A stretch of DNA of 64,000 nt from Vicinamibacterales bacterium (GCA_965199675.1 CBDATI010000059.1:78291-142290), one strand, 5' to 3'; shown: positions 5,438-64,000, counted from the stretch's first letter. The notes: a model not told the origin generated them from the sequence alone. Translations and numbers: made by a program.

Positions 5438-5709
5438 CGTCTTTCATCGTAACGCACGACGGGCGGCTCGTGGCGCGGCGCCGTGTGGTCGGGGCCCGCG
5501 CCGCCGCGGGACCGCGCCGGCGTGAGGCGCCCGCCGATGATGCGTCGGTCCGGGGCGGCGACAGAGAACAGCGCCGCCGCGGGGCGCCGCCGGAGCGAGG
5601 CGCCGCCGGATGCCCGGGTTCGCGGCGCCGCCCGCGCGTCGGGCGAAGGTCCGCGCCCACCCGCGCAGGGCGTCTCGGTCCGCGGCCCGACGGGTCCGGC
5701 GGCCGGTGG

Positions 5710-5715
5710 TAGAAT
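5710..5715 (+). promoter_or_regulatory. -10-like box TAGAAT 8 nt upstream of ATG 5724 (possible leaderless transcript)
   Basis: ggtggTAGAATcgcccgcgATG. This is an isolated AT-rich hexamer in GC-rich intergenic DNA, and no Shine-Dalgarno sequence fits in the 8-nt gap. Confidence 0.4.
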
Positions 5716-5723
5716 CGCCCGCG

Positions 5724-7175: not shown

Positions 7176-7185
7176 CGGCGCCCTC

Positions 7186-7929
7186 TTGATCGTCGATCCC
7201 TGGTTCTACGCCGCCGCGACGGTCGCGGTGCTCATCGTCGGCATCGCCAAGGGCGGGCTCGGCGGCGGCATCGCGGTGGTCGGCGTGCCCCTGATGGCGA
7301 TGGTCATCAGCCCCGCCCAGGCCGCCGCGGTGCTGCTGCCGATCCTCATGGTCATGGACGTCCTCGCGGTCCGCGCCTACCGGGGGGCGTGGGACTGGCC
7401 CAACCTGCGGGTGCTGGTGCCGTCGGCGCTGCTGGGCACGGCGCTGGGCGCGGCGACCTTCGGCTATCTGACCCCCGACGGCCTTCGCGCGCTGGTGGGG
7501 GTGATCGCACTGACCTACTCGCTGCAGTACTTCGCGCCGCGGACGGCGTCGCCCCCGAGGTCTCCGCGCCGTGCGACCGGCGTCCTCTGGGGCGCGCTGG
7601 CGGGATTCGCGAGCTTCTCGGTGCACGCGGGCGGACCCCCGCTCCACGCCTACCTGCTGCCGCAGCGCATGGACCGCACGACATTCCAGGCCACCGGCGT
7701 GGCGTTCTTCTTCGTCGTCAACTGGTCGAAGGTGGGCCCCTACGCGTGGCTGGGCCAGTGGAACGCCGACAACCTGCTCACCTCGCTGGTGCTGCTGCCC
7801 CTCGCGCCGGTGGGCATCTGGATCGGCCGCCGGCTGCACGAGCGCGCCACCGACGACCTCTTCTTCCGCATCGTCCACGCGTCACTCTTCGTCATCGGCG
7901 CGAAGCTGCTGTACGACGTCACGACGTGA
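7186..7929 (+). CDS. TauE/SafE (DUF81) family sulfite/anion exporter
   Basis: 247-aa polytopic membrane ORF with a TTG start. It has the characteristic IAKGGLGGGIAVVGVPLM N-terminal motif and a second half-repeat. Confidence 0.85.
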   Translation: MIVDPWFYAAATVAVLIVGIAKGGLGGGIAVVGVPLMAMVISPAQAAAVLLPILMVMDVLAVRAYRGAWDWPNLRVLVPSALLGTALGAATFGYLTPDGLRALVGVIALTYSLQYFAPRTASPPRSPRRATGVLWGALAGFASFSVHAGGPPLHAYLLPQRMDRTTFQATGVAFFFVVNWSKVGPYAWLGQWNADNLLTSLVLLPLAPVGIWIGRRLHERATDDLFFRIVHASLFVIGAKLLYDVTT

Positions 7930-14244: not shown

Positions 14245-14254
14245 GGCGCAGGTG

Positions 14255-16393
14255 TCACAGAGCGGTCGGGTCGTCGCCGCGCTGCGCATCGGTCGGGCCG
14301 GCCGGCGGGAACACGGCCGCGTTGAAGCCGGAGATCAGGCGGTCGAGGGCGGACGGGCCGCCGAACACCCGCTGCGCCCGGTCGTAGCCGCCGAGTCCCT
14401 TGAACGGGTGCTCGTCGAAGTCGTAGTCGCCGAAGGCGTCCATGTGCAGCGCGTCGGCCCGGATGCGGCTGCCGATGAGGCCGGCCCAGCGCGCCTGTTC
14501 CGCGTCGAACGTCTGGTCGCTGCGCCACGCCTCGAAGCGCAGGCCGACCTCGGCCGCGCGGGTCTCGTGCTCGGCCGTGCGCACGATGCGGCCGTGCTCA
14601 TCCAGCGCCAGCCAGTCGCGGGTAGCGGGGTCGATCTGGTCGTCCACGTCGAGGGTCAGCATCAGGCGGGGATCGCCGGCGCGATAGTCGGCGCGGCGCT
14701 CGCGCACGCTGCCGCCCGCCAGGTCCCGGTCGTCGTCGCCGTGGAAGTCGGTCACCCCGACGAAGTCGAAGATCGTGAAGTCGGTCTTCCCGATGTGCGG
14801 CGCCTTGCGGGTGCCGCGCCCGCGCATCTGCCGGTAGAGGATGGCGCTGCGCGTGAACCGCGCCATGACCAGGCTGACCACCTCCGGGCAGTCGAAGCCG
14901 GTATCCAGCATGTTGACGCTGACCAGGATCTTCGGGAACTCCTCGTCCTTGAAGCGCTTGATGACGGCGCTCGCATCCGGGGCCGGACCGCCGCCCACGT
15001 CGCTGACCACGAAGTCCGCGTAGCGTGTGGTCGGATGCGGCTTCAGGTCGGCGAAGTGCTCGTCGAGCATCGTGGCCAGCGTCTCGGCGTGGCGCTTCGT
15101 CACCGCGAAGACGATGGTCTTGCCCCATGTCGGCCAGCGGCGGACGCCGTCGCGGCCCATGAACCCCTTCTCGTGGGCGTCGCGGAACTCCCGCACGATG
15201 GCGCGGTTGCGCTCGGGGATCGTGAACCGCCGCTCCAGCGCGCGCGGGTCGACGGTGATGCGGTCGGACGACGTGAACAGCGCCTCGAGTTCGTCGCGCG
15301 CGGCCCCGTCCATCGCGGTCCAGTCGAGTTCGTCGCGCGCCACCTCGAACCCGCCCTCGGCGGCCGTCTTGACCGTCAGCGCCTTATAGATGCGGTAGGG
15401 CGCCAGGTGTCCGTCCCGGACGGCTTCGCGGAGCGTGTAGCGGAACGTCGGTTCGGCGAGCTCGAAGAACCGCAGCGTGTCGCGCACGAAGTGGCCGTCC
15501 TCGGGGTCGGGCGCGTCGGCCTCGGCGGTGCAGGGCGTGGCGGTCAGGCCGAGCTGGATGCCGTCGAAGTGGCGCAGCACGCTGCTCCACTGCCCGTAGA
15601 TCGAACGGTGGCACTCGTCGGTGATCACGAGGTCGAAGTAGCCCGACGACAGGTCGCGGTACTCCGTGATCATCGTCTGCAGCGTCGCGATGGTGATGCG
15701 CTTCGTGCGGTCGAAGCCGCGGCCGGGCCGCAGCACGTGGCAGGGGTAGTCGCGCAGGTGGTCGCCGAAGGCGTCCTCGGCCTGCCCGGCGAGGGCGATG
15801 CGGTCCACGAGGAACAGGACGCGGGTGACGAGGCCGGCCTCGAACAGGCGCTTGACGAAGGCCGCCGTGGTGCGGGTCTTGCCGGCGCCGGTCGCCATCT
15901 CGACCAGCAGCTTGCGGCGGCCGCGCGACACCTCGGCCGACAGCGCCTCGATGCATGCAATCTGGTACCGGCGTTCGACGATCCGCCGGTCGATCTCGAC
16001 GCCGGACAGGTCCCGTCGATTCTGGCGGGCGGCGATGCGTCGCTCCAGGTCGTCGGGCGCGTAGAACGTGGCGATCTGCCGCGCGTGGGCGTCCGTCTCG
16101 CGGTCCAGGAACCAGACTTCCTCGCCGTTCGACAGGAACACGAATGGCACGCCGAGCTGCTCGGCGTAGTGGCGCCCCTGGTCCTGCGCGGCGATGGGGT
16201 TGATGCTCGCGCGCTTGGCCTCGACCGCGGCCACGGGGACGCCGGCGCGGTTGCAGAGCGCGTAGTCGGCCCGCGAACCGTCCGGGAGCACGTGCTCGAA
16301 GACGACGCTCGCGCCGTCGGTGAGATTCCAGCCCGCATCGTTGAGCAGGGCGTCGATCTTGACGCGGGAGAAGGCCTCGGGGGTGCGACTCAT
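14255..16393 (-). CDS. hsdR: type I restriction endonuclease subunit R (short, EcoEI-like form)
   Basis: It has an N-terminal nuclease region (..DYALCNRAGVPVAAVEAKR). Helicase motifs are MATGAGKT and ITDECHRS. The C-terminal domain is EcoEI-R-like. The start is 16393 (MSRTPEAF) or 16453. Confidence 0.9.
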   Translation of the reverse strand: MSRTPEAFSRVKIDALLNDAGWNLTDGASVVFEHVLPDGSRADYALCNRAGVPVAAVEAKRASINPIAAQDQGRHYAEQLGVPFVFLSNGEEVWFLDRETDAHARQIATFYAPDDLERRIAARQNRRDLSGVEIDRRIVERRYQIACIEALSAEVSRGRRKLLVEMATGAGKTRTTAAFVKRLFEAGLVTRVLFLVDRIALAGQAEDAFGDHLRDYPCHVLRPGRGFDRTKRITIATLQTMITEYRDLSSGYFDLVITDECHRSIYGQWSSVLRHFDGIQLGLTATPCTAEADAPDPEDGHFVRDTLRFFELAEPTFRYTLREAVRDGHLAPYRIYKALTVKTAAEGGFEVARDELDWTAMDGAARDELEALFTSSDRITVDPRALERRFTIPERNRAIVREFRDAHEKGFMGRDGVRRWPTWGKTIVFAVTKRHAETLATMLDEHFADLKPHPTTRYADFVVSDVGGGPAPDASAVIKRFKDEEFPKILVSVNMLDTGFDCPEVVSLVMARFTRSAILYRQMRGRGTRKAPHIGKTDFTIFDFVGVTDFHGDDDRDLAGGSVRERRADYRAGDPRLMLTLDVDDQIDPATRDWLALDEHGRIVRTAEHETRAAEVGLRFEAWRSDQTFDAEQARWAGLIGSRIRADALHMDAFGDYDFDEHPFKGLGGYDRAQRVFGGPSALDRLISGFNAAVFPPAGPTDAQRGDDPTAL

Positions 16394-16785
16394 GCGTTCG
16401 CTGTCGGGTCGCCCACCTGTGCTGCGACGAGCGTCGGCGGTGGCGTCCGCCAACTCGCGAGTCCTGTCCGCCTCGGTCAGCCGCCGGGCAATGGTCAGGG
16501 ATCGAACATCGGATGCGCCTGGGCTCTGCCGCCCTCGGTGGCGCGCTGGCGACCAGTATCACAACACCACGACCACGCGACCGAGACAGTATACCGTGCG
16601 CCATCAGGGGGAAGACGGTGGGACGGCAGGCAGGAGGGGAGCGGGGCTGATTATGTCGCTGGCCGTGTGAGCGTCGCCCTGAGTTGGCCCGGGCGCCGGG
16701 GCAGCACCAGGCGGCGATCAGCCGGCCGGGGGACGGGCCGTTGTAGAATCTGCAGACAGGCCAACTTGCGAGGAGAGCACCCTTG

Positions 16786-51259: not shown

Positions 51260-52666
51260 TCAGTCGGCGGGCTGCTCGGTCCGGGACGCGCCCGCGTCCG
51301 TGCGGACCGCCTGAAGCACCCGTGGCAGCGCCTCTACAGCGTACAACGGCAACGAGAGAATACGCGCGGTCACGTCCTGGGTGCCCGTGGCGGTACGAAT
51401 GGCGTGGCGGACGGTCTGCAGGCTGGGCGGATTGGTGTCGAACCGCACCGCGATGGGCGGTCGTTTCTCGTGGGCGAACTGCAGGAGTGATTTCAACGCG
51501 CCGCTGCGTCCGGCCTTGACCTCGATCGGCACGAGCCAGTCCCGGTGCGAGACGACGTAGTCGATTTCCGCGTTGCCCCGCCGGGCGTGCCGCAGCCAGT
51601 AGTGGAGGTCCGGCGGGTGGTCGCCGCCGCTCAGCGCCGTCAGTTGCTGCCCCACGTACTGTTCGGCCACCCCGCCTTCGTTCACGAGCCGGGTATCGTC
51701 CAGCGTCTCGATGTCGGTCAGGTCCAGACCGCACAGGTGGTTCATCAGCCCCACGTCCATGAAGATCAGCTTGCTCGCCCGCTGGCCGGCGTCGGCGCCG
51801 AGCGGCAGCCCCGAACAGTGGGTGTGGGAGACGCGGTGGCAGACCCGCGCCTTGACCAGCAGGTCGATAGCCCGGCTCACTTCCGCCGCGCGCGCATCCG
51901 GGTCGAGACGGCGGTAGCTCACGGGCTGGCCCACGGATCGAGGCACGAGACGGAACAGCCGCTGGAGACGGGCGAGCGGCGTCCGCCGCGCGTACTTGGC
52001 GAAGTCGTCCTCATAGGTCGACGCGATGGACCGGTGGACGGCCGCCACCTCCAGCGGGGAACCCGATTCGCGGTACGCCAGTACCGCTTCGGGCAATCCG
52101 CCAACGACGAGATACTCGCGGAGCCGCCGGCCGAGTCGACGGTGGGCGGCCTCGGTCGGTGGCGCGTCCACGGCGAGGTCATCGAGAGGCCGGATCGCAG
52201 CCGGCTCGACCGCCGCCAGGAACTCGCGAAACGTCAGCGGCCCCAGATGCAGGTACTGAATGCGCCCGACCGGCATGGAGAATCCGTGGTCGGCGAGGGT
52301 GAACTCGAGCAGCGAGCCCGCCGCCACCACCGGCAGTTCCGGTCGGTCCTCGTACAGGTAGCGCAGAGCCGGCAGGGCATGGGGCGTCGCCTGCACCTCG
52401 TCCAGGAACAGGACCGCCTCGTCCAGTCGGGCGCCCCCGAGCGTCTCCAGCTCGCGCAGGATGCGGCCGGTGTCGAGGCTCTCGAACACGCGGTCGAGGT
52501 AGAGATGCCGCTCCAGGTTCACTTCGCAGAGCGCCATGCCGGCCGCCGCCGCGAACCGGCGAACCAGGGTCGTCTTCCCGACCTGCCGCGCCCCTCGCAG
52601 CACCAGCGGCTTGCGGCGGCGCGCCGTCAGCCAGCGTTGCAAGGTGTCTTCTACGATGCGCTTCAT
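51260..52666 (-). CDS. AAA+ ATPase with DUF4143 domain
   Basis: LVLRGARQVGKTTL (Walker A), LFLDEVQ (Walker B) and a DUF4143-like C-terminal half. TATAAT on the minus strand (52691-52696) lies in an AT-rich patch upstream. Confidence 0.85.
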   Translation of the reverse strand: MKRIVEDTLQRWLTARRRKPLVLRGARQVGKTTLVRRFAAAAGMALCEVNLERHLYLDRVFESLDTGRILRELETLGGARLDEAVLFLDEVQATPHALPALRYLYEDRPELPVVAAGSLLEFTLADHGFSMPVGRIQYLHLGPLTFREFLAAVEPAAIRPLDDLAVDAPPTEAAHRRLGRRLREYLVVGGLPEAVLAYRESGSPLEVAAVHRSIASTYEDDFAKYARRTPLARLQRLFRLVPRSVGQPVSYRRLDPDARAAEVSRAIDLLVKARVCHRVSHTHCSGLPLGADAGQRASKLIFMDVGLMNHLCGLDLTDIETLDDTRLVNEGGVAEQYVGQQLTALSGGDHPPDLHYWLRHARRGNAEIDYVVSHRDWLVPIEVKAGRSGALKSLLQFAHEKRPPIAVRFDTNPPSLQTVRHAIRTATGTQDVTARILSLPLYAVEALPRVLQAVRTDAGASRTEQPAD

Positions 52667-52867
52667 GACGATATAGACGTCTAAAATATCATTATAGGCG
52701 ACAATTCAGGCGTATCTACATGCTGTCGTGGCGTACGGCTCCCCGACCCGATCTGCGCGATTCCGGGCCGGCGAGTGCCCGTTCCGCGCGACGTCGGCGG
52801 CGGGAGACCCCAATCGTCGGACGACCCGCCGCGTCTGGTTTCAGACTGGTCGTACAATCCGGTCTCG

Positions 52868-52913
52868 AGTCACGAGTTCACATCGAGGGGAGTCACGAGT
52901 TCACATCGAGGGG
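52868..52913. repeat. perfect 23-bp direct repeat x2 (AGTCACGAGTTCACATCGAGGGG) abutting a TTGACC hexamer
   Basis: Units at 52868-52890 and 52891-52913 are read directly from the sequence. TTGACC lies at 52914-52919, about 105 bp upstream of the hsdM GTG. Confidence 0.85.
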
Positions 52914-53022
52914 TTGACCTTGGACATTGGCGCCTACGTTGCACTCATGGGCCACCGGAACGTCGGGAGGGGCGGCCGGACAGGGCTGCTGAGCGTCCAG
53001 GAGACGGACGGAGGGGCGTCCT

Positions 53023-55470
53023 GTGAGCAATCATGACCTGCACTGGATCGCCAACTACATCTGGGGCATCGCCGACGACGTGCTGCGCGACCTCTACGTC
53101 CGCGGCAAGTACCGCGACGTGATTCTGCCGATGACCGTGCTGCGCCGGCTCGACGCCGTGCTGGAGGACACCAAGCGGGCGGTGCTCGACATGGCAGGCC
53201 GGCTCGACCAGCACGGCGTCGTCGAGCAGGACTCGGCCCTGCGGCAGGCGGCGGGGCAGGCGTTCTACAACACGTCGCCGTTCACCCTGCACGACCTGCG
53301 CGCCCGCGCCAGCCGCCAGCAGCTCGAGGCCGACTTCCGGGCCTACCTCGACGGCTTCTCGCGCAACGTGCAGGACATCCTCGACAACTTCGAGTTCCGC
53401 AACCAGATCCCGCGCCTGTCGAAGGCCGACGCCCTGGGCACCCTGATTGAGCGGCTCACCTCGCCGGACATCAACCTCAGCCCGCATCCAGTGATGAACG
53501 CCGACGGCTCCATCCGGCATCCCGGCCTCGACAACCACGCCGTGGGCTCGATCTTCGAGGAGCTGGTCCGCCGCTTCAACGAGGAGAACAATGAGGAGGC
53601 GGGCGAGCACTGGACGCCGCGCGACGCCGTGCGGCTGATGGCCTGGCTCGTCTTCCTCCCGGTCGCCGACGACATCAAGTCCGGCACCTACCTGCTCTAC
53701 GATGGCGCCTGCGGCACCGGAGGCATGCTCACGGTCGCCGAGGAGACGCTGCAACAGCTCGCGGCCGAGCACGGGAAGGACGTCTCCACGCACCTGTACG
53801 GCCAGGAGATCAACGCCGAGACCTACGCCATCTGCAAGGCCGACCTGCTGCTGAAGGGCGAGGGCGAGGCGGCCGACAACATCGTCGGCGGCCCCGAGCA
53901 CTCCACCCTCGCCAACGACGCCTTCCCGGCTCGCGAGTTCGACTTCATGCTCTCGAACCCGCCGTACGGCAAGAGCTGGAAGACCGACCTCGAGCGCATG
54001 GGCGGCAAGCAGGCGATGCGCGACCCCCGCTTCGTCATCGACCACGCCGGCGACCCCGAGTACTCGCTGGTCACGCGCTCGAGCGATGGCCAGATGCTCT
54101 TCCTCGCCAACAAGCTCTCGAAGATGAAACAGGGCACGCCGCTCGGCAGCCGCATTGCCGAGGTGCACAACGGCAGCTCGCTCTTCACCGGCGACGCCGG
54201 GCAGGGCGAGAGCAACATCCGCCGCTGGATCATCGAGAACGACTGGCTGGAGGCCATCGTCGCCCTCCCCCTCAACCTGTTCTACAACACCGGCATCGCC
54301 ACTTACGTCTGGGTGCTCACCAACCGCAAACCCGAGCACCGCCGCGGCCAGGTGCAGCTCATCGACGCCACCGGGTGGTACCGGCCGTTGCGCAAGAACC
54401 TGGGCAAGAAGAACTGCGAGCTCGGCGAGGACGACATCACCCGCATCTGCGAGACCTTCTTGGACTTCGATGAGAGCGAGCAGTCGAAGATCTTCGACAA
54501 CGCCGCCTTCGGCTACTCGAAGGTGACCGTCGAGCGGCCGCTGCGCATCGAGGGAGCCGACCCGGAGCGCGTACACAAGGCGGCCGAGATCAAGGAGCTG
54601 AAGAAGAACGGCGCGCGCAGCGAGGATGCGCCGCCGATCATCCGCAAGGTCCACAAGCGGGGCACCGAGCCCGACCCGTTGCGCGGCCGGTTCGCGGCGA
54701 CCGTCAACGGCCGGCCGGCCTTGGTGGAGTACGAGCCGGACCCCGACCTGCGCGACACCGAGCAGATCCCGCTCACCGAGGCGGGCGGCATCGAGGCGTT
54801 CCTCCGTCGCGAGGTGCTGCCCTACGCCGCCGACGCCTGGTACCGGCCCGACAGTGTCAAGGTCGGCTACGAGATCAGCTTCACGCGCTACTTCTACAAG
54901 CCGAAGCCGATGCGGACCCTGGCCGAGATCCGAGCCGACATCCTCGCCCTGGAGCAGGAGACCGAGGGGATGCTGGGCGACATCCTCGCCGTCCGCGAGC
55001 GTCCGCCGGTCGAGCGCCTGCGCGTATACGCCGATACGTCGGTGATAGGCGGTTGCGAGGACCCCGAGTTCCGCGACCCGTCCCGCCGCTTGGTGGACCG
55101 CTTCGTCCGCGGCGATCTGATCCTCGTACTGTCGCCGCTCACGGTGGAGGAGCTCGCCGCGGCTCCGCCGTCGGTCCGCCGTGTCCTGGACACCGTGCCG
55201 CTCAACCACATCGAACGACTCCAGCGGAGCGTTGAAGCTCGGACGCTGGCCGCCGCCTATGTCGAGCGCGGCGCGCTGCCCGCACGGAGCGCAGTCGACG
55301 CCGAACACATTGCCATGGCCACCGTCGCCCAGGCCGACGTCCTGGTGAGCTGGAACTTCCGCCACATCGTCAGCTTGCGTCGCATGCGGGCGTACAATCG
55401 CATCAACCGGGCCCTGAAGCATCGGGCCATCGATATCCGCACGCCGAGGGAGATGAGCGATGACGGCTGA
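53023..55470 (+). CDS. hsdM: type I R-M DNA methyltransferase fused in frame to a C-terminal PIN-like domain
   Basis: 815-aa uninterrupted ORF with a GTG start and GGAGGGG upstream. The N-terminus IANYIWGIADDVLRDLYVRGKYRDVILPMTVLRRLD is HsdM-type. Motifs are DGACGTGGML and NPPYGKSW. From nt 55021 (aa 667) it reads RVYADTSVIGGCEDPEF..LTVEELAAAP..SAVDAEHIAMATVAQADVLVSWNFRHIV..IDIRTPREM, a PIN-like acidic-residue pattern. Confidence 0.85.
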   Translation: MSNHDLHWIANYIWGIADDVLRDLYVRGKYRDVILPMTVLRRLDAVLEDTKRAVLDMAGRLDQHGVVEQDSALRQAAGQAFYNTSPFTLHDLRARASRQQLEADFRAYLDGFSRNVQDILDNFEFRNQIPRLSKADALGTLIERLTSPDINLSPHPVMNADGSIRHPGLDNHAVGSIFEELVRRFNEENNEEAGEHWTPRDAVRLMAWLVFLPVADDIKSGTYLLYDGACGTGGMLTVAEETLQQLAAEHGKDVSTHLYGQEINAETYAICKADLLLKGEGEAADNIVGGPEHSTLANDAFPAREFDFMLSNPPYGKSWKTDLERMGGKQAMRDPRFVIDHAGDPEYSLVTRSSDGQMLFLANKLSKMKQGTPLGSRIAEVHNGSSLFTGDAGQGESNIRRWIIENDWLEAIVALPLNLFYNTGIATYVWVLTNRKPEHRRGQVQLIDATGWYRPLRKNLGKKNCELGEDDITRICETFLDFDESEQSKIFDNAAFGYSKVTVERPLRIEGADPERVHKAAEIKELKKNGARSEDAPPIIRKVHKRGTEPDPLRGRFAATVNGRPALVEYEPDPDLRDTEQIPLTEAGGIEAFLRREVLPYAADAWYRPDSVKVGYEISFTRYFYKPKPMRTLAEIRADILALEQETEGMLGDILAVRERPPVERLRVYADTSVIGGCEDPEFRDPSRRLVDRFVRGDLILVLSPLTVEELAAAPPSVRRVLDTVPLNHIERLQRSVEARTLAAAYVERGALPARSAVDAEHIAMATVAQADVLVSWNFRHIVSLRRMRAYNRINRALKHRAIDIRTPREMSDDG

Positions 55471-55921
55471 GCGCGACGAGAAGCGGTTCGATTGCGTGAA
55501 GTTCATGCGGGAACAGCGAGATCGACTCAGCGACAAGATGGCGACCATGAGCTCGGCGGAGTTCAGCGACTGGCTGGACAGCCGGCGCTACGACGACCCC
55601 GTCCTGCAGCGCCTCGCCAACCTGCCCCCTGGCCCCCGTTCGTCGCGCCACGAGGAAGGGACGAGCCCCGCGGACCACCGCGAGAGTCCGCCGGAGCAAG
55701 CAGGGTCCCCGACCGAGATCACCTTCGAGGTGCGGTCGGGCGGGCGCGACGGTCCGTACACCGCCCGGGCCCCCGGGTTCGGCCTCAGCGCCGCTGGCGG
55801 CTCCATCGAGGAGATCCGTCGGAACGTTCGGAAGGCGGTCGAACATCACTTCGACGACCTCGCGCGACGACCCCGCGCGATCCGTCTGCGTGTCGTCGGG
55901 GAAGAGGTGCTGCAGCTTTGA
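55460..55921 (+). CDS. two-part ORF: antitoxin-like N-terminus + HicB-like C-terminal domain
   Basis: 153 aa, overlapping the hsdM-PIN end by 11 nt. The N-terminus KRFDCVKFMREQRDRLSDKMATMSSAEFSDWL resembles, from memory, small proteins encoded beside SWNF-type PIN genes. The C-terminus EITFEVRSGG..YTARAPGFG..GGSIEEIRRNVRKAVEHHFDD..IRLRVVGEE is paralogous to the hicB product at 56420. Confidence 0.55.
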   Translation: MTAERDEKRFDCVKFMREQRDRLSDKMATMSSAEFSDWLDSRRYDDPVLQRLANLPPGPRSSRHEEGTSPADHRESPPEQAGSPTEITFEVRSGGRDGPYTARAPGFGLSAAGGSIEEIRRNVRKAVEHHFDDLARRPRAIRLRVVGEEVLQL

Positions 55922-55995
55922 CGGAAACCGTCGAGCAGTCTGCACGCGGCGGCAACCGAACCGATGCATTCGCTGGCCAAGATCCTCTACCGGGG

Positions 55996-56423
55996 GCCGA
56001 GATCAAGGCGCTGAAGGAGGCCGGCAAGTGCGGTGACGAGGCGCCGCCCGTCGTCCGCAAGGTCCACAAGCGGGGCACGGCCGCCGACCCGCTGCGCGGC
56101 CGGTTCGCGACCATCATCGACGGCCGGTCCGTCGTGGTGGAGTACGAGCCGGACCGCGACCTGCGCGACACCGAGCAGATTCCGCTCACCGAGAAGGGGG
56201 GCATCGAGGCGTTCCTCCGCCGCGAGGTTCTGCCCTATGCCGCCGATGCGTCGCACCGGCCCGACAGCGTGAAGGTCGGCCGAAGCCGATGCGGACCTTG
56301 GCCGAGATCCGCGCTGATATCTTGGCCCTGGAGCAGGAGACTGACGGCCTGCTGGCGGAGATTCTGGGCCACGGCGAACCGGCGCGACGCGATGAAGACG
56401 ACACCACGGGGATCGGACAATGA
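55996..56423 (+). pseudogene. diverged, internally deleted copy of an hsdM 3' end
   Basis: AEIKALKEAG..APPVVRKVHKRGTAADPLRGRFATIIDGRSVVVEYEPDRDLRDTEQIPLTEKGGIEAFLRREVLPYAADA..PDSVKVG aligns with hsdM codons at 54584-54870. A 34-nt stretch (tacgag..caagc, encoding YEISFTRYFYK) is missing. Past the deletion the other frame reads KPMRTLAEIRADILALEQETDGLLAEILGHGEPARRDEDDTTGIGQ*, with its stop overlapping the hicB ATG as ATGA. Confidence 0.8.
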
Positions 56424-56662
56424 CTGACAAACCAAACGCGGAGTCGCGGGCGCGGCCTTCGGAGATCATCTTCGAGGTCACCGAGGCGATCGAGGGGGGT
56501 TACGACGCCCGTGCGCTCGGCTACAGCATCTACACGCAGGGAGATGACTGGGACGATCTGAAGGAGATGGCGAGAGACGCGGTTCGCTGCCACTTCGATG
56601 ACGGCGATGCGCCGTGCGTGATCCGGCTGCATCTCGTGCGCGAGGAGGCCATCGCGGTATGA
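56420..56662 (+). CDS. hicB: HicB-like antitoxin
   Basis: 80 aa: SEIIFEVTEAIEGGYDARALGYSIYTQGDDWDDLKEMARDAVRCHFDD..IRLHLVREE. It is followed by an overlapping hicA (ATGA). Confidence 0.7.
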   Translation: MTDKPNAESRARPSEIIFEVTEAIEGGYDARALGYSIYTQGDDWDDLKEMARDAVRCHFDDGDAPCVIRLHLVREEAIAV

Positions 56663-56900
56663 AGCTGCCGCGCGATCTTTCGGGCACCGAGGTGGCTCGG
56701 CGGCTCGCCCGTCACTACGGCTACCGAGTGACTCGCAGCCGAGGCAGCCACATGACCGTGACGCGGATTATGAACGACAAGACCCATCAGGTCACCGTGC
56801 CCGCGATGTGCGCGTCGGCACGCTCGACGCGATCATCACCGATGTGGCGGCGTTCCTTGGCCTGACCAAGGGCGAGGTGCGCGACACGCTCTTCGGATAA
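56659..56900 (+). pseudogene. hicA: HicA-family mRNA interferase toxin, frameshifted
   Basis: MKLPRDLSGTEVARRLARHYGYRVTRSRGSHMTVTR...HQVTVPA then leaves the family pattern at about 56803-56811. The -1 frame continues as RVGTLDAIITDVAAFLGLTKGEVRDTLFG* and ends 3 nt before hsdS. The expected His after VTVP is missing. Confidence 0.7.
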
Positions 56901-58121
56901 CCCATGCTTGGCGACTTGAGGCCCTACTCGAAGACGAAGGACTCCGGCGTGGAGTGGCTGGGGAAGGTGCCGGCGCATTGGGAGGTCGTGCAGCTCGGCC
57001 GGATGGGTCGGCTCTTCAAAGGCGGCGGTGGCACGAAGGCGGACGATCGCGAGGACGGCGTGCCGTGCGTCCGCTACGGGGACCTGTACACGCATCACCG
57101 CTTCTTCATCACCGACAGCAGAGCGCGCGTTGCGCCCGAGACGGCCGCCACATACACACCGCTCCGCTACGGCGACGTCCTGTTCGCCGGGTCGGGCGAG
57201 ACCATCGACGAGATCGGCAAGTCCGCCGTCAACCTGATGCGCGACCCCGCCTGTTGTGGCGGTGACGTGATCGTCTTCCGGCCGTCCATCGATGTCGATA
57301 CCAGGTTCCTGGGCTACGCCGCGGACTGTCCGCAGGTGGCGTGGCAGAAGGCACGCATGGGGCGCGGCATCACGGTGATGCACATCTATGGGAGCGAACT
57401 CAAGTACCTGTTCGTCGCTCTGCCGCCGCTCCCCGAGCAGACCGCCATCGTCCGCTTCCTCGACCACGCCGACCGGCGCATCCGGCGCTACATCCGCGCC
57501 AAGGAGAAGCTGATCGCGCTGCTGGAGGAGCAGAAGCAGGCTTTCATCGACGAGGCCGTTACCGGGCGGATCGACGTGCGGACCGGCCGGCCGTACCCGG
57601 CCTACAAGGATTCAGGGGTGAAGTGGTTGGGGAGAGTGCCAGAACAGTGGGAGGTCAGGCCGCTCGGTCGCATCGGTCGGTTCTTCAAGGGAGGCGGCGG
57701 AACCAAGGAGGACGAGAGAGAGGACGGCATTCCTTGTGTCCGCTACGGCGACCTGTACACACAACACGAGTTCACCATCGCCGCGGCCCGGGCGTGCGTT
57801 ACCTCGGAGCTGGCGGCAACGGTTTACACGCCAATTCGGTACGGAGACGTTTGTTTCGCAGGGTCGGGGGAAACCATCGATGAAATTGGCAAGTCTGCAG
57901 TCAACTTGATTCGTGGCCCGGCTGTATGTGGCGGCGACGTGATCATTTTCCGACCCTCCAATGAAGCAGATGCTCGGTTCCTCGGTTACGCAACGGATTG
58001 TTCCGCGTCTGCGCGCCAGAAGGCGACGATCGGCCGCGGTTTCACGATCGTTCACATCTATTCCAGTGACCTCAAGCACGTCACGGTTGCGATTCCCAGC
58101 CTTTCCGAACAAGCTGCCCTA

Positions 58122-59623
58122 CCAGCCCGTGGAAAAAGTCGGCAAATTCGGGCCGATCGGGTCGATCTGAGTGGTTGTAGTGTCGTAGACTTCACAGCAT
58201 GGCGATGGGCAAGAGGCCGGCGGCTCGACCGGCGCCACCGATGTGGGTGACGGCAGAGGACCTTCCCAAGAGTGCGGGGCATCCCTTCTTCGAGCGGCTG
58301 AATCGGATTCTGGAGAAATCCAGGTTCGACGCTTTCGTGGAGGGGTTGTGTGCGGTCTTCTACGCGGAGCGAATGGGTCGTCCGAGTCTGCGACCCGGGC
58401 GGTATTTCCGGCTTCTGTTCATCGGGTATTTCGAGGGTCTGTCATCGGAGCGCGCGATTGCGTGGCGGGTCGCGGATTCGCTGAGCCTGCGGGCTTTCCT
58501 GGATCTGGACGTGACGGAGGCGACGCCGAACCACTCGACGCTGTCACGGACTCGGCGTCTGATCGACGTGGAGACGCACGCGGCGGTGTTCACGTGGGTG
58601 CTGGAGCGGTTGTCGGAAGCGGGTCTGGTGAAGGGGAAGACGATCGGGGTGGACGCGACGACGCTGGAAGCGAACGCGGCGATGCGGAGCATCGAGCGTC
58701 GGGATACGGGGGACTCGTACGACGCGTTCGTGCGGGGGCTGGCGGAGGCATCTGGCATTGCGACGCCGACGCGGGCGGAGTTGGCGCGTTTCGACCGTTC
58801 GCGGAAGGGCCGGAAGACGTCGAATGAAGAGTGGACGTCTCCGCAGGACCCGGACGCGAAGATCGCGAAGATGAAGGACGGTCGGACGCATCTGGCCCAC
58901 AAGGCGGAGCACGGTGTCGACCTGGAGACGGGAGCGCTCCTGTCGGTGACGGTTCAGGACGCGTCGGAGGGTGATACGGCGACGCTGCCGGAGACGCTGA
59001 CGAAGGCGGCGGAGCAGGTGGAGGCGGTTCAGCCTGACGGTGAGGGCGTCGAAGAGGTGGTGGCCGACAAGGGGTATCACAGCGACGCGACGCTGGTGGC
59101 GCTCGACGACCTTGGTGTACGCAGCTACATCGCGGAGCCGGCGCGTGGTCGGCGCGTCTGGCAGGACAAGAAGACGGGTGAGACGCCGCCGGAGAAGCGT
59201 GCTGCGCAGTCGGCGCTGTATGGGAATCGTCGGCGTATTCGCGGGGACCGGGGCCGTCGTCTCCAACGCTGCCGGGGGGAACTGGTGGAGCGGCCTTTCG
59301 CTCACCAGTATGAGACCGGGGGTCTGCGTCGGGTGTGGGTGCGCGGCCATGAGAATGTCCGCAAGCGGGTGCTGGTCCAGGCGGCGGGCTGCAACCTGGG
59401 TCTGTTGCTGCGCCGCCTGACGGGCGTCGGTACGCCCCGGAGCCTGCAGGGGCGGGCTCTTTCGGCGATTCTCGGGCTGATCGAACGCCTCATGGGCCTC
59501 TGGGGGCGTCTGAACGGCCTCTGGAGGGCCAAATGGGCTCCGGTCGCCCCCTGGGGCTCAGCCGCTCGTCCCCAAGCTGCTTGAACAGGCCCGCTCAGCG
59601 AACCGACTTCGTCCACGGGCTGA
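58122..59623 (+). mobile_element. 1502-bp insertion sequence (IS5/IS1182-like DDE transposase) with imperfect terminal IRs and TA duplication
   Basis: IRL is CCAGCCCGTGGAAAAAGTCGG (58122-). The reverse complement of the right end is TCAGCCCGTGGACGAAGTCGG (-59623). It is flanked by TA (58120-58121) and TA (59624-59625) and carries a single 461-aa transposase ORF. Confidence 0.85.
58199..59584 (+). CDS. DDE transposase (IS5/IS1182-like; N-terminal DUF772-type domain)
   Basis: ..HPFFERLNRILEKSRFDAFVE..GRPSLRPGRYFRLLFIGYFEGLSSERAI..VDATTLEANAA..KMKDGRTHLAHKAEHGVDLETGALLSVTVQDASEGD..VADKGYHS. The family-level call is from memory. Confidence 0.85.
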   Translation: MAMGKRPAARPAPPMWVTAEDLPKSAGHPFFERLNRILEKSRFDAFVEGLCAVFYAERMGRPSLRPGRYFRLLFIGYFEGLSSERAIAWRVADSLSLRAFLDLDVTEATPNHSTLSRTRRLIDVETHAAVFTWVLERLSEAGLVKGKTIGVDATTLEANAAMRSIERRDTGDSYDAFVRGLAEASGIATPTRAELARFDRSRKGRKTSNEEWTSPQDPDAKIAKMKDGRTHLAHKAEHGVDLETGALLSVTVQDASEGDTATLPETLTKAAEQVEAVQPDGEGVEEVVADKGYHSDATLVALDDLGVRSYIAEPARGRRVWQDKKTGETPPEKRAAQSALYGNRRRIRGDRGRRLQRCRGELVERPFAHQYETGGLRRVWVRGHENVRKRVLVQAAGCNLGLLLRRLTGVGTPRSLQGRALSAILGLIERLMGLWGRLNGLWRAKWAPVAPWGSAARPQAA

Positions 59624-59882
59624 TAGCCGGTTTCATTGAGGATGGGACTCGGAACATGAGCGCGGCTATTGCCGGCAGTCGGGGCCAGATCAAACGGGTA
59701 CGCGAGTACCGCACGCGCCTGATCGCGGACGTCGTCGCCGGCAAGCTCGATGTTCGCGAGGAGGCAGCTGGTCTTCCCGATGTCGATGCGCTGGCCGCCG
59801 AAGACGAGGCGGAGGACGCGGCCGCGGGCGGCGCCGTAACCGATGAAGAGCGACTCGAGGCAGGGCGCGAGGGGGCCGTCGC

Positions 59883-60285
59883 GTGACGCGGGGAGGCGCG
59901 GGCGCGAGCGGGCGGCGCGCGTTGAGGACGCTGCAACCTGCGGTGTTGCGCTGGGCGCGCGAACGCGCCGGGCTCAAGCCCGAGACGCTGGCCGCCGGGA
60001 TGAAAGTGAAGCCGGAGCGGGTCCACCACTGGGAACGGTCCGGCGAGATCAGCGTCTCCCAGGCGGGACCGGTTGGCGCGGCGTACCCATACGCCCCTCG
60101 GCTTCCTCTACCTTCGCGAACCCCCGGACGACGATCTGCCGATACCGGATTTCCGCGCGCCGCACGATCTGAGCCACTTCGACGCCACGGCGGACATCTG
60201 GCGGGATGAGCATTTCCGGGGTTGGTCGAACCGTTGTCCGCGGTGTCGCGGTGGTCGTGGCCCCACGAGTTCGCCGCGATCCTGA
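59883..60285 (+). pseudogene. decayed HTH(XRE)-type gene, likely the N-terminal part of an HTH + ImmA/IrrE-like protein
   Basis: The GTG overlaps the hsdS stop as GTGA. It reads LQPAVLRWARERAGLKPETLAAGMKVKPERVHHWERSGEISVSQA, then switches frame near 60060-60075 to ..RRTHTPLGFLYLREPPDDDLPIPDFRAP.. and terminates early. No peptidase part is present. Confidence 0.55.
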
Positions 60286-60339
60286 GCGAAGCCGCCTGAC
60301 GGCCACCGAGCGAGGAGCGGCAGGTCGAAGGAGAACGTC

Positions 60340-60597
60340 ATGAGTGTGGAATCGGAACTGGTCGATCGCATCACCGTGCGCCAGGACGTGTTCGGTGGCA
60401 AGCCTGTCATCCGTGACATGCGCATCGCGGTGGAGCACGTCCTCGGGATGTTGGGGGCGGGCGATACGGCGGATACCATCCTGCGGGAATACCCGGACCT
60501 CGAACCGGATGATATACAGGCGTGCCTGCTGTTTGCGCATCGCTCGATGGCTGGCGAGCAGGTGTACGACCGGCTTCCGGTTCGAGAGGCTTCGTGA
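60340..60597 (+). CDS. DUF433 domain protein (antitoxin-like)
   Basis: 85 aa: ITVRQDVFGGKPVIRDMRIAVEHVLGMLGAGDTADTILREYPDLEPDDIQACLLFA. AAGGAGA lies upstream. Confidence 0.8.
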   Translation: MSVESELVDRITVRQDVFGGKPVIRDMRIAVEHVLGMLGAGDTADTILREYPDLEPDDIQACLLFAHRSMAGEQVYDRLPVREAS

Positions 60598-60971
60598 GAT
60601 TTCTTCTCGATGCGTGCGCCGCATCGCGGAGCTTGCGCGAGTTCTTGATGAACCTGGGCCATGATGTCCGGTCCGCGCGAGGTGAGCACGCGCGGGCGTC
60701 GGACGAGGCGCTGCTCGCGTTGGCGTACGATGAGCACCGGGTGCTGGTCACAGAGGACAAGGATTTCGGCGAGCTCGTCTTCCTGCGGCGGCTGTCGCAC
60801 CCGTGCATCGTTCGGCTGGTGGCATTGACGGTCTCGGAGCAGGTGGCGGCGATGCAGGACTTAATCGAGCGGCATGGCGATGCGTTGCGCGCAGGCGCCA
60901 TTGTCGTCGTGACCAGGAGGCGCGTGCGAATACGAGGGACGGCTGGATTCGGGGAGGGAGACCGTGGCTGA
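60594..60971 (+). CDS. DUF5615-like (Mut7-C/PIN-like) protein
   Basis: GTG start overlapping the DUF433 stop as GTGA. It reads VRFLLDACAASRSLREFLMNLGHDV.....ASDEALLALAYDEHRVLVTEDKDFGELVF, the usual partner pattern of DUF433 genes. Confidence 0.72.
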   Translation: MRFLLDACAASRSLREFLMNLGHDVRSARGEHARASDEALLALAYDEHRVLVTEDKDFGELVFLRRLSHPCIVRLVALTVSEQVAAMQDLIERHGDALRAGAIVVVTRRRVRIRGTAGFGEGDRG

Positions 60972-63900
60972 GGCGACAGACACCACCGAGCGCGGCCTCG
61001 AACGCCTCATCTGCACCGCGCTGACCGGCCATCCCTGTGACCCGCCGCAAGAGGGGCGGGTGCGCGAGCCGCGGTCCGGCTACGGCGGAGTGGGCTGGAA
61101 CGCGGGGAATCCGCGGGACTACGACCGTGAATATTGCGTCGATCGGATCCAGCTTGCCGCCTTCCTGCAGGAGACCCAGCCGCAGACCGCCGACGCGCTC
61201 GCGCTGGATGAGGACGGTCCAACCCGACGGAAGTTCCTGGCGCGCCTCCAGGGCGAGATCGCGAAGCGCGGCACCATCGACGTGCTGCGCCACGGCGTCC
61301 GGCATGGCCCGCACGAGCTGGAGCTCTTCTACGGCGCCCCGTCGGCCGGGAACCCGCGGGCGCACGAGTGCTTCGAGCAGAACCGCTTCACGGTCGTCCG
61401 CCAGTTTCGTTACAGCCGCGACGAGACGCAGCGGGCGCTCGACATCGCCCTGTTCATCAACGGCCTGCCCGTGTTCACCTTCGAGCTGAAGAACAACCTC
61501 ACGAAGCAGACGACGGCCGACGCGGTCGAGCAGTACCGGCGGGACCGCAACCCGCGGGAGAAGCTGTTCGAGCTCGGCCGCTGCGTCGCCCACTTCGCGG
61601 TGGACGAGAGCGAGGTGCGCTTCTGCACGCAGCTTCGGGGCAAGGCGTCGTGGTTCCTGCCGTTCGACCGGGGCTGGAACGACGGCGCCGGCAACCCGCC
61701 CCACCCTGCCGGCATCAGGACCAGCTATCTGTGGCGGGAGGTGCTGGCCCGCGAGAGCCTGACCGACATCCTGGAGAACTACGCCCAGGTGGTGGAGGCG
61801 AAGGACGAGAAGACCGGCTGGAAGCAGCGCACGCAGGTCTGGCCCCGCTACCACCAGCTCGACGTGGTGCGGCGGCTGCTGGCCGACGCCGCAGCGCACG
61901 GGGCGGGCCGGCGCTACCTGATCCAGCACTCGGCGGGCAGCGGCAAGAGCAACTCCATCGCCTGGCTGGCCCACCAGTTGATCGGCCTGCGCCGGGACGA
62001 CGCGCCGGTCTTCGACTCGATCATCGTGGTCACCGACCGCCTCGTCCTCGACCGGCAGATCGGCGACACCATCCGGCAGTACGCCCAGGTCGGCGCCACG
62101 GTGGGGCGCGCGCAGCGGTCCGGCGACCTGCGGCGGTTCATCGAGGCGGGGAAGAAGATCATCATCTCGACCGTCCAGAAGTTCCCCTTCATCCTCGACG
62201 AGATCGGCAACGAGCAGCGCACGCGGCAGTTCGCCATCGTCATCGACGAGGCGCATTCCAGCCAGGGCGGGCGCACGTCGGCCTCCATCTCGGCCGCGCT
62301 GGGGACGGCCGGCGAGGAGGGCGAGGACGAGACCTTCGAGGATCGCATCAACCGCGTGATGGAATCACGCAAGCTGCTGCCCAACGCCAGCTACTTCGCG
62401 TTCACCGCGACGCCGAAGAACCGGACGCTGGAGATCTTCGGCGCGCCCGATCCGCAGCCCGACGGCGCGGTCCGACACCGCGCCTTCCACCGCTACACCA
62501 TGAAGCAGGCCATCGAGGAGGGCTTCATCCTGGACGTGCTGGCGCACTATACGCCGGTGGCCAGCTTCTATCGGCTCGCCAAGACGGTGGAGGACGACCC
62601 GGAGTTCGACGTCAGGAAGGCGCAGAAGAAGCTGCGGCGCTTCGTCGAGGGCCACGACCACGCTATCCGCCTCAAGGCCGAGATCATGGTCGACCACTTC
62701 CACGCCCAGGTCCTCGCCAGGAACAAGATCGGCGGTCAGGCGCGGGCGATGGTCGTGACGAATGGCATCGAGCGCGCCATCCAGTACTTCCACGCCATCC
62801 GCGACTACCTCCAGGAACGCAAGAGCCCCTGCCGCCCCATCGTCGCCTTCTCCGGCGAGCACGAGTTCGGCGGCCGGAAGGTGACCGAGACGTCACTGAA
62901 CGGCTTCCCGTCCGGGCAGATCGCCGAGAAGGTCCGGGAGGACCCGTACCGCTTCCTCGTCTGCGCCGACAAGTTCCAGACCGGCTACGACGAGCCGCTG
63001 CTGCACACGATGTACGTCGACAAGACGCTGTCCGGCATCAAGGCGGTACAGACGCTCTCGCGCCTCAACCGGGCGCACCCGCAGAAGCACGACGCGTTCG
63101 TGCTCGACTTCCTCAACGACGCCGACACCGTCCGGGACGCCTTCGCCGACTTCTACCGCGCGACAATCCTGGCCGGCGAGACCGACCCCGACAAGCTCCA
63201 CGACCTGCAGGCCGATCTCGACGCCGCACAGGTCTACTCACCGGAGCAGGTGGATGACCTCGTCGAACGCTACCTCGACGGGGCCGAGCGCGACGAACTC
63301 GATCCGATCCTCGACGCCTGCGTCGCCGTCTATGTGCAGGACCTCGACGAGGACGCGCAGGTGGCCTTCAAGGGCAGGGCCAAGGCGTTCGTGCGGACCT
63401 ACGGCTTCCTGTCGTGCGTCCTGCCGTACGCGAATGCGGCGTGGGAGAAGCGCTCCATCTTCCTGAACTTCCTGATCCCGAAGCTGCCGGCTCCCGCGGA
63501 GGAGGATCTGTCGAAGGGCATCCTCGACGCCATCGACATGGACAGCTACCGGGTGGAGAAGCGCGCGGCGCAGCAGCTCCTGCTGCCCGACGAGGATGCG
63601 GAGGTCGATCCGGTGCCGGCCAGCGGCGGTGGCCACCGGCCGGAGCCGGAACTCGACCGCCTGTCGAACATACTCAGGACGTTCAACGATCTGTTCGGCG
63701 ACATTCCCTGGAACGATGCCGATCGAGTGCGACAACTCATCACGGATACCATCCCGTCGCGCGTCGCCGACGATGCCGCATTCCAGAATGCAAGGCGCAA
63801 CTCGGATGACGAGAACACCCAAATCGAGCATGACAAGGCGCTGCGTCGCGTGGTGAACAACGTCATGAACGACGACGCCGAGTTGTTCAAGCGGTTCATG

Positions 63901-64000
63901 GACGACGAGGGCTTCAGGCGGTGGATGACCGACGCAGTCTTCGAGCTGGCCTGCGCGAGGACGGAGGATACTGCGGGTGTCGGCCGGACGGTCGTTGGGC
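60964..64000 (+). CDS. hsdR: type I restriction endonuclease subunit R, partial (continues past window end)
   Basis: My own translation from GTG 60964 (GGGGAGGGAG upstream) has no stop before the window end. It reads VAEATDTTERGLERLICTAL..ALDIALFINGLPVFTFELKN (nuclease region). It continues YLIQHSAGSGKSNSIAWLAHQL (Walker A), FAIVIDEAHSSQGG (DEAH) and FTATPKN. The last codons (..DDEGFRRWMTDAVFELA..) look close to the C-terminus. Confidence 0.9.
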   Translation, partial: MAEATDTTERGLERLICTALTGHPCDPPQEGRVREPRSGYGGVGWNAGNPRDYDREYCVDRIQLAAFLQETQPQTADALALDEDGPTRRKFLARLQGEIAKRGTIDVLRHGVRHGPHELELFYGAPSAGNPRAHECFEQNRFTVVRQFRYSRDETQRALDIALFINGLPVFTFELKNNLTKQTTADAVEQYRRDRNPREKLFELGRCVAHFAVDESEVRFCTQLRGKASWFLPFDRGWNDGAGNPPHPAGIRTSYLWREVLARESLTDILENYAQVVEAKDEKTGWKQRTQVWPRYHQLDVVRRLLADAAAHGAGRRYLIQHSAGSGKSNSIAWLAHQLIGLRRDDAPVFDSIIVVTDRLVLDRQIGDTIRQYAQVGATVGRAQRSGDLRRFIEAGKKIIISTVQKFPFILDEIGNEQRTRQFAIVIDEAHSSQGGRTSASISAALGTAGEEGEDETFEDRINRVMESRKLLPNASYFAFTATPKNRTLEIFGAPDPQPDGAVRHRAFHRYTMKQAIEEGFILDVLAHYTPVASFYRLAKTVEDDPEFDVRKAQKKLRRFVEGHDHAIRLKAEIMVDHFHAQVLARNKIGGQARAMVVTNGIERAIQYFHAIRDYLQERKSPCRPIVAFSGEHEFGGRKVTETSLNGFPSGQIAEKVREDPYRFLVCADKFQTGYDEPLLHTMYVDKTLSGIKAVQTLSRLNRAHPQKHDAFVLDFLNDADTVRDAFADFYRATILAGETDPDKLHDLQADLDAAQVYSPEQVDDLVERYLDGAERDELDPILDACVAVYVQDLDEDAQVAFKGRAKAFVRTYGFLSCVLPYANAAWEKRSIFLNFLIPKLPAPAEEDLSKGILDAIDMDSYRVEKRAAQQLLLPDEDAEVDPVPASGGGHRPEPELDRLSNILRTFNDLFGDIPWNDADRVRQLITDTIPSRVADDAAFQNARRNSDDENTQIEHDKALRRVVNNVMNDDAELFKRFMDDEGFRRWMTDAVFELACARTEDTAGVGRTVVG

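Follow-up and report, generated by a model that had tools for sequence, protein, structure and literature searches.

Nested toxin-antitoxin-type modules and an HsdM-PIN fusion in a partly decayed Type I restriction-modification operon of a Vicinamibacterales bacterium

The stretch of DNA considered here, 64,000 nucleotides (nt) long and referred to below as the window, comes from a Vicinamibacterales bacterium (GCA_965199675.1, CBDATI010000059.1:78291-142290), and its last part, positions 53,023 to 64,000, is occupied by a Type I restriction-modification (R-M) locus in which the subunit genes hsdM, hsdS, and hsdR are interspersed with small genes of the toxin-antitoxin (TA) type (Table 1). An initial annotation, made from the sequence alone, had laid out this gene order on a single strand, with tight junctions, signs of decay, and small open reading frames (ORFs) assigned to TA families, and these claims held: all elements are found on the plus strand where they had been placed, the frameshifts, the deletion, and the insertion sequence (IS) are present, the small ORFs are represented by a PIN fold, a HicB N-domain fold, and matches to HicA and DUF433/DUF5615, and each of the named overlaps and gaps can be read directly from the sequence. 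The gene for HsdM-PIN and the ORF of 153 amino acids (aa) that follows it (ORF153) overlap by 11 nt (55460/55470), ATGA overlaps occur at 56420 and 56659, TAA-ccc-ATG leads into hsdS at 56904, GTGA overlaps occur at 59883 and 60594, and an overlap of 8 nt (60964/60971) connects the DUF5615 gene with hsdR. The junction overlaps are not due to chance, being shared by the orthologous locus L038 (L numbers designate related loci), with the overlap between HsdM-PIN and its partner present in 21 of 22 copies. Four modules are recognized in the window: HsdM-PIN with its partner, hicB-hicA, the remains of an HTH/M78 plus DUF1828 module, and the DUF433-DUF5615 pair.

Table 1. Features of the R-M locus, with positions in the window
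Feature	Position	Strand	Description
hsdM-PIN	53023-55470	+	HsdM_N + N6_Mtase + C-terminal PIN
ORF153 (153 aa)	55460-55921	+	In-frame partner::HicB-like fusion
Second hsdM 3' remnant	55992-56423	+	Diverged, PIN-less hsdM copy
hicB-like antitoxin gene	56420-56662	+	Appears intact
hicA toxin pseudogene	56659-56900	+	Frame shifted by a 7-nt deletion
hsdS, split by IS	56904-59886	+	Methylase_S
IS, 1500 bp	58123-59622	+	Putatively IS5/IS1182 type; DUF772 + DDE_Tnp_1
Transposase gene in IS	58199-59584	+	461 aa, intact
HTH remnant	59883-60158	+	5' piece of Xre-HTH + Peptidase_M78 (ImmA/IrrE) gene
DUF1828-family 3' tail	60178-60300	+	Frameshifted; similarity to L036
DUF433 (COG2442) predicted antitoxin gene	60340-60597	+	Pfam 78.3 bits, intact
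DUF5615/Mut7-C-type PIN-like predicted toxin gene	60594-60971	+	Pfam 60.2 bits, intact
hsdR	60964-64000 (window end)	+	1012 open codons, C-terminus outside the window

The first gene encodes a protein of 815 aa, in which a methylase core (about aa 1-655) is joined through a short linker to a VapC-like PIN domain (about aa 665-815). The core possesses the N6-adenine methylase domain and the catalytic NPPY motif of a Type I HsdM (SNPPYG in the translation), along with a DGACGTGG motif, and scores 75.9 bits with HsdM_N, 167.6 bits with N6_Mtase, and 781 bits with the PADLOC model MTase_I. Homologs of the entire fusion form at least 120 clusters, of 784-865 aa (most of 811-828 aa), covering 96-100% at 74-83% identity, and the fusion is seen in Latescibacterota, Acidobacteriota, Gammaproteobacteria, Gemmatimonadota-type metagenome-assembled genomes (MAGs), and others. 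As to the C-terminal domain, the copy in the window scores only 20-24 bits with Pfam PIN, under the gathering cut-off of 27, and a sequence-profile search of the Protein Data Bank (PDB) with this domain returned nothing useful, the fold search alone being successful. The AlphaFold (AF2) model of residues 650-815 has a pLDDT of 87.8, its best Foldseek matches in the PDB are all VapC toxins (probability 1.0), Pfam PIN is matched by the C-terminal domains of 10 of 12 family members and PIN_3 by those of 7, and none of the residues D671, E710, D759, and D772 varies among 15 aligned HsdM-PIN homologs. The predicted structure and the alignment together provide the fold and the conserved acidic active-site residues of VapC/PIN proteins; an upstream DNA-binding antitoxin (RHH, AbrB, PhD, or HTH) is not found, the partner being encoded downstream and carrying no such domain. 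The PIN extension is absent among 72,556 PLSDB plasmids, even though the HsdM core is common there, an exact look-up of the 815-aa protein retrieved no contig, and our literature search found no description of the HsdM-PIN fusion or of the partner module. The view of hsdM-PIN as an insertion is not supported; judging from its homologs, it is instead a conserved full-length fusion with a dedicated partner gene, and not an accident.

The partner gene encodes about 60-90 aa, and its ATG lies 4-23 nt (mostly 11) before the HsdM-PIN stop codon in 21 of the 22 fused genes, that of the window included, the one exception being L019, in which the partner is fused to HsdS. Partners lacking an intact PIN are known from L036 (with a 'KGKAFDCV' scar), L041, L042, L086/L087, and protein P0305, and no PIN lacking a partner was seen among the copies examined, an asymmetry that would be predicted by a toxin/antitoxin dependency and that points to it indirectly. 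Arrays of two or three partners in tandem, and single chains that join PIN with partner, are frequent. It is a small family, a 60-aa query yielding 79 clusters from 1.84 billion representatives, and its fusions are all with PIN, the HsdM tail, HsdS, a HicB-like domain, or itself. Unusual N-terminal fusions of HsdS are also encountered in relatives, including partner-HsdS proteins (528 aa in L019, 12655-14241, and P0245) and a NADAR-HsdS protein of 752 aa (L001, 15928-18186). In the window, the partner constitutes aa 1 to about 60 of ORF153 (with the motif FDCVxFMREQRDR), and an orphan HicB-like domain occupies about aa 80-153. In L001, the two are separate genes, of 82 and 72 aa, and a separate 72-aa HicB-like gene follows the partner in L001-L006 and L016. 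As fusions of the ORF153 type are also present in L033 and P0122, the partner::HicB-like arrangement is a recurrent architecture. A word-indexed homolog search with ORF153 returned a single relative.

Between ORF153 and the hicB-like gene lies what remains of a second hsdM, the last 137 or so codons of a PIN-less copy, whose positions 55992-56377 share 81-85% nt identity with 54579-54998. It has suffered a 34-nt deletion at 56279/56280 (direct repeats D1/D3 are spaced 1413 vs. 1379), and its native stop codon overlaps the hicB start in the ATGA noted above. Similar hsdM 3' scars are present in L022, L014, and L085, which include closed long-read chromosomes along with other contigs, and such scars fit cassette swapping by recombination at the conserved hsdM end.

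The HicB-like protein, of 80 aa, has 902 unannotated relatives and is 82-88% identical to orthologs whose genes adjoin hicA. Its matches to the HicB_lk_antitox and UPF0150 profiles are weak and sub-threshold; its AF2 model is a single beta-beta-beta-alpha-beta domain, with Escherichia coli HicB/HicB3 as the top Foldseek matches (6hpb_B, probability 1.00, and 6u0i_B, 0.99; rmsd 1.2, 44 columns). The predicted structure is that of the N-terminal toxin-binding fold of HicB, and the C-terminal DNA-binding domain is missing from the 80-aa protein. The adjacent hicA lost its frame through the deletion located after 56801 by alignment with L018, L030, and L024, and the window copy scores 20.7 bits (E 4.6e-4) with Pfam HicA_toxin, below the cut-off of 27, while the intact ortholog in L038 scores above it (32.3 bits, E 1e-7).

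The hsdS gene encodes two target recognition domains (TRDs; two stretches of Methylase_S, seen also as the internal repeat D2) and scores 229 bits with the PADLOC model Specificity_I. As its halves, 56920-57151 and 57589-57820, share 73% nt identity, the two TRDs are related to each other, and the site that they recognize may be close to symmetric. The IS cuts the gene after codon 405 or so, severing the C-terminal conserved region, and the tail restarts at 59623. The initial annotation was correct in placing an IS within hsdS, with the amendment that the core of the element is 58123-59622; an alternative model of 58119-59626, with a 2-bp 'CC' duplication, is ruled out by the empty site and by the other copies, which define the 1500-bp core and duplications of 4 bp. 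The ends of the element are CAGCCCGTGG and CCACGGGCTG, with perfect inverted ends of about 10 nt, the NCBIfam matches of its transposase to IS1182 and IS5 are both under the cut-off, and one sample contains at least three other contigs that encode an identical transposase. The element is multi-copy at 99.9% identity, and four other copies are flanked by perfect 4-bp target duplications. Alleles free of the IS are represented by two short contigs from other runs or samples: L090 matches 57470-58121 at 99.85%, and both L090 and L091 match from 59623 onward at 100%, with nothing in between. The IS-free allele thus holds an intact hsdS that reads '...SLSEQAAIAGFIEDG...', is 100% identical over 1.67 kb, and already carries the HTH remnant. 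From these alleles it follows that the insertion of the IS is recent and polymorphic, and that the frameshifts in this stretch are real and not sequencing errors. Going by the coding sequence, the split allele probably neither methylates nor restricts, and the IS-free allele probably does both. HsdR combines the nuclease N-domain and the SF2 helicase motor of Type I enzymes (HSDR_N, SWI2_SNF2, ResIII, T1R_D3), and is 81-84% identical at the aa level to its counterparts in L001, L018, and L029.

The HTH remnant that the initial annotation placed after hsdS is indeed there, but the region is more damaged than described: the frame shifts by +1 near 60066, some 1.5 kb has been deleted, and a frameshifted DUF1828 tail follows. 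A truncated match to HTH_31 covers 59883-60209, and the 90 or so codons that are left align with the start of the Xre-HTH plus Peptidase_M78 genes of L038, L036, and L018, which encode 387-388 aa. The tail, of about 40 codons, shows 77% nt identity to L036 15323-15447, where a 288-aa DUF1828 ORF located behind HTH-M78 ends, and represents the right edge of the deletion, whose size is deduced from the similarity to HTH-M78 stopping at 60158 and the DUF1828 tail following at 60178. The Xre-HTH/COG2856 (M78) three-component system is therefore incomplete in the window and intact in L036 and L038. The remnant also has a weak PADLOC match to 'RmrA'. The DUF433 gene, whose protein is found identical on seven other contigs, is directly followed by that of DUF5615 (COG4634 PIN-like), with both matches above the cut-offs, and the latter has weaker matches to PIN_10 and Mut7-C.

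To place this locus in a broader context, species-representative genomes were scanned, and 80 related loci (L005-L084) were retrieved. Their HsdM cores are 70-88% identical to that of the window at the aa level (at least 78% in all but two), and they span at least ten phylum-level groups, among them Latescibacterota, Acidobacteriota, Proteobacteria, Chloroflexota, Binatia, Planctomycetota, and Gemmatimonadota-type MAGs, nearly all of them uncultured MAGs. Such unusually strong conservation of HsdM across phyla, as far as sequence comparisons can tell, implies recent, extensive horizontal spread. The nearest backbones belong to Vicinamibacterales MAGs, in which the order hsdM, hicB, hicA, hsdS, HTH-M78 (with DUF4411 or DUF1828), DUF433, DUF5615, hsdR recurs, overlaps included, and L038, L018, L036, L029, L030, and L024 hold the whole or part of the cargo series of the window. 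Where hsdM and hsdR are both present (65 loci), the stretch separating the HsdM core from the hsdR start measures between 1.1 kb and over 9.4 kb (median 4.5 kb). Of these loci, 43 carry one or more TA-like modules, 22 two or more, 11 three or more, and 4 four or more, all of these counts being lower bounds. The commonest cargo clusters are DUF433, macro/DarT, RHH-PIN pairs, AlbA_2 ATPases, DUF5615, HicA, GmrSD, HTH-M78, DUF4411, and Mrr, and the 77 cargo cluster representatives match 65 Pfam families, including transposases, ThsB-TIR, and Fic. A Meiothermus plasmid locus annotated in RefSeq is likewise cargo-bearing. The high density of TA modules remarked upon in the initial annotation is thus real, in that the window belongs among the densest loci, but not unique, with at least 4 of the 65 loci carrying four or more.

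One instructive relative is represented by L088/L089. On the right flank these contigs are 95.8% identical to the window over 60197-61082 and 97.6% over 63221-64000; on the left side they are just 67-87% identical and carry different cargo (PRTase-CE, NADAR), a difference that supports cassette exchange, as read from the sequences. In L088, two copies of the window's IS (99.9% identity), placed in tandem, have destroyed much of hsdR, with an IS-mediated loss of 2.1 kb (4826-7873). Other related loci are decaying too: L036 has an internal deletion of about 1.1 kb in hsdR (17382), and in L086 the HTH/M78 and hsdR genes are fragmented (13955-16447).

Overall, the observed gene identities, folds, conservation, scars, and polymorphism are likely best explained by a partly decayed, co-oriented Type I R-M operon built on a mobile backbone that crosses phyla and routinely carries TA and defence cargo, most of it inherited as blocks, with exchange and decay following. 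The layout would have been inherited in this manner, a single exchange at the 3' end of hsdM would have left the second-hsdM scar, and later decay would comprise the hicA frameshift, the deletion in the peptidase module, and the splitting of hsdS, in this allele only, by a recently active IS. The TA modules would be transcribed together with the hsd genes, perhaps with translational coupling as well, and the PIN, HicA, and DUF5615 toxins would each be kept inactive by the adjacent partner. The modules may serve as addiction elements, making the operon costly to lose, and/or as an abortive-infection back-up when a phage blocks the R-M complex or host expression, for which PrrC of EcoprrI would be the model, and the PIN/partner pair may amount to a TA pair with the toxin gene first, anchored to the methylase.

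The idea of a hotspot in which cassettes are exchanged, put forward in the initial annotation, agrees well with the varied cargo of related loci and with the changed left-hand cargo of L088. That this genome itself received four insertions is another matter. The differing cargo, the scars and the IS, and the close relative with its different left side would also be expected if a plain hsdM-hsdS-hsdR operon had taken at least four independent TA insertions, its density reflecting a lineage-specific hotspot, but we consider such a history unlikely, as hicBA, HTH-M78, DUF433-DUF5615, and hsdR share order and junctions in several other genomes, HsdM-PIN with the partner and the HicB-like gene is itself a conserved block, and a single exchange, at the 3' end of hsdM, suffices for this genome. 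The layout appears instead to have been mostly inherited as a block, the same order being found elsewhere.

A further proposal, which we put forward tentatively and regard as doubtful, is that HsdM-PIN and its partner constitute a guardian built into the restriction complex, in which a tethered VapC-like RNase, restrained by a co-translated partner, would be set free, with abortive infection as the outcome, once the M2S complex is disturbed or the partner depleted through a phage anti-restriction protein or host shut-off. Alternatively, the PIN may not be a TA toxin at all, and may represent an extra nuclease of the restriction complex or an accessory in RNA or DNA processing, with the partner as an assembly or regulatory subunit. 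The covalent joining of PIN to HsdM in every member, the fusions of the partner to HsdS and to the HsdM tail, the PIN-partner single chains, and the PIN genes found with hsdM/hsdS but without hsdR by Matelska et al. (PMC5499597) are all in line with this alternative. It is nevertheless improbable: hsdR is present and conserved in the loci considered here, the nearest folds are VapC toxins, the PIN, as would be expected of a toxin, has disappeared repeatedly from loci that keep the partner, and tandem PIN-partner units duplicate independently. It is very improbable that the tandem of hsdM and its remnant is an assembly chimera of two metagenomic strains joined in the conserved hsdM, even with the left half lacking a second contig and with strains of differing left halves co-occurring, since the join (55921-55992) lies outside the repeated sequence, the two hsdM copies share just 81-85% identity, comparable scars exist in the chromosomes and contigs mentioned above, and the right half is 100% identical to independent assemblies.

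Some observations do speak against the block-inherited, TA-laden operon that we favor. Consensus scans, in agreement with a single operon, detected no internal terminators above background (7 terminator-like sites vs. 4.9 +/- 2.6 in shuffled sequence) and no internal promoters above the shuffled background, with the sole plus-strand promoter-like site located upstream of hsdM, but scans for sigma-70 promoters and terminators are unreliable at about 68% GC and with the phylum uncertain. The left half, 53023-57469, is confirmed by no independent contig. The 4-mer to the left of the IS (58119-58122) is CTAC, while the one to the right (59623-59626), like the empty site, is ATAG, so that two of the four bases differ. 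The partner has no recognizable antitoxin or DNA-binding fold, its sole Pfam match, to DUF6887, being weak (E 0.003), and the existence of PIN-partner single chains means that it could be a regulatory or sensor domain and not a labile antitoxin. Finally, the functional part of the proposal, that is, transcription, toxicity, neutralization, and any role in defence, is argued by analogy with PrrC/EcoprrI and with the embedded systems DarTG2 and TgvAB.

As to the surroundings, a 23-nt unit (GAGTCACGAGTTCACATCGAGGG x2) is perfectly duplicated in tandem at 52867-52912, directly upstream of a -35-like TTGACC, the two together situated about 110 nt before the hsdM start, and this could be an operator for a regulator. 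A small HTH gene is found upstream of hsdM in related loci (L001, for example); the window has no such gene. The divergent neighbor (51260-52666, minus strand) encodes an AAA_14 plus DUF4143 ATPase that matches PDC-S01 (E 4.6e-137), a phage-defence candidate in PADLOC; with this ATPase adjoining it, the R-M operon lies in a small defence island. Upstream of 53019 there is no synteny with any of 84 loci. Long antisense ORFs, such as 52945-55548 (minus strand, 867 aa, opposite hsdM), are high-GC artefacts and not genes. Rfam and tRNA scans came back empty, and neither the IS nor any of the hsd or TA genes has a further copy elsewhere within the window.

The nesting of TA and defence cassettes in Type I operons, and the proposal that this site is a recombination hotspot, have already been published (PMC12255303, PMC11411939, PMC5499597, 10.1101/2024.01.29.577857), also under the name of 'guilt-by-embedding' (Payne et al., 2024). 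Nested cargo of this kind is an accepted lead to new defence genes. For this approach, the locus family described here is a highly conserved and unusually cargo-rich scaffold, and the window, the IS-free allele, and the relative with the swapped left side make a natural series for cassette exchange and loss. HsdM-PIN with its partner would physically link restriction with TA or abortive systems, a link for which PrrC/EcoprrI is the sole well-studied precedent that we found. Should the guardian proposal be true, no earlier TA toxin would be physically part of an R-M enzyme, and TA and RM would be seen to interact directly; Matelska et al. (2017; PMC5499597) noted PIN-like toxin genes co-transcribed with hsdM/hsdS and stated that a direct TA-RM interaction had yet to be shown. 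If, on the other hand, the modules are merely selfish addiction genes, then the locus is an ordinary one.

Among known systems, the 'R-M guardian' PrrC of the Type IC system EcoprrI presents the nearest functional model for an HsdM-tethered PIN, as an RNA-targeting toxin whose gene is located among hsd genes and which is held latent by the R-M complex until phage block of restriction releases it (review PMC12707154). However, PrrC is a separate ABC-ATPase/HEPN-type protein that has no dedicated small partner, while in the window a VapC-like PIN nuclease forms part of the HsdM chain itself, and the partner gene overlaps the end of this fusion gene. Published cases of embedding include DarTG2 between hsdS and hsdR (the EPEC RRDM island, with RptR) and TgvAB in a Type I operon of Vibrio cholerae. 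The likeness to these is that of a TA or defence cassette within a Type I operon, and loci related to the window also carry DarT-Macro and GmrSD, but DarTG2 and TgvAB are single embedded systems, as opposed to the four to five TA-type modules of the window, one of them fused to a subunit. In type II HicAB, hicB and hicA are likewise adjacent and overlapping, a Pfam HicA match exists that reaches the cut-off in the intact L038 ortholog, and HicB has the N-domain fold of E. coli HicB; the window differs in that the antitoxin comes first, HicB is reduced to a toxin-binding domain of about 70 aa with no RHH or HTH DNA-binding domain, hicA is a pseudogene, and no hicA accompanies the second HicB-like copy. 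The DUF433(COG2442)-PIN pair and the HTH-COG2856-PIN three-component systems were predicted by Makarova et al. (2009; PMC2701414), and DUF433-DUF5615 matches both their COG2442-PIN pair and the pair given as DUF433-PIN_10 by Matelska et al. The predictions made in those studies correspond exactly to DUF433 with a PIN-like toxin and to HTH-M78 with DUF4411; neither the HsdM-PIN fusion nor the partner family is described there.

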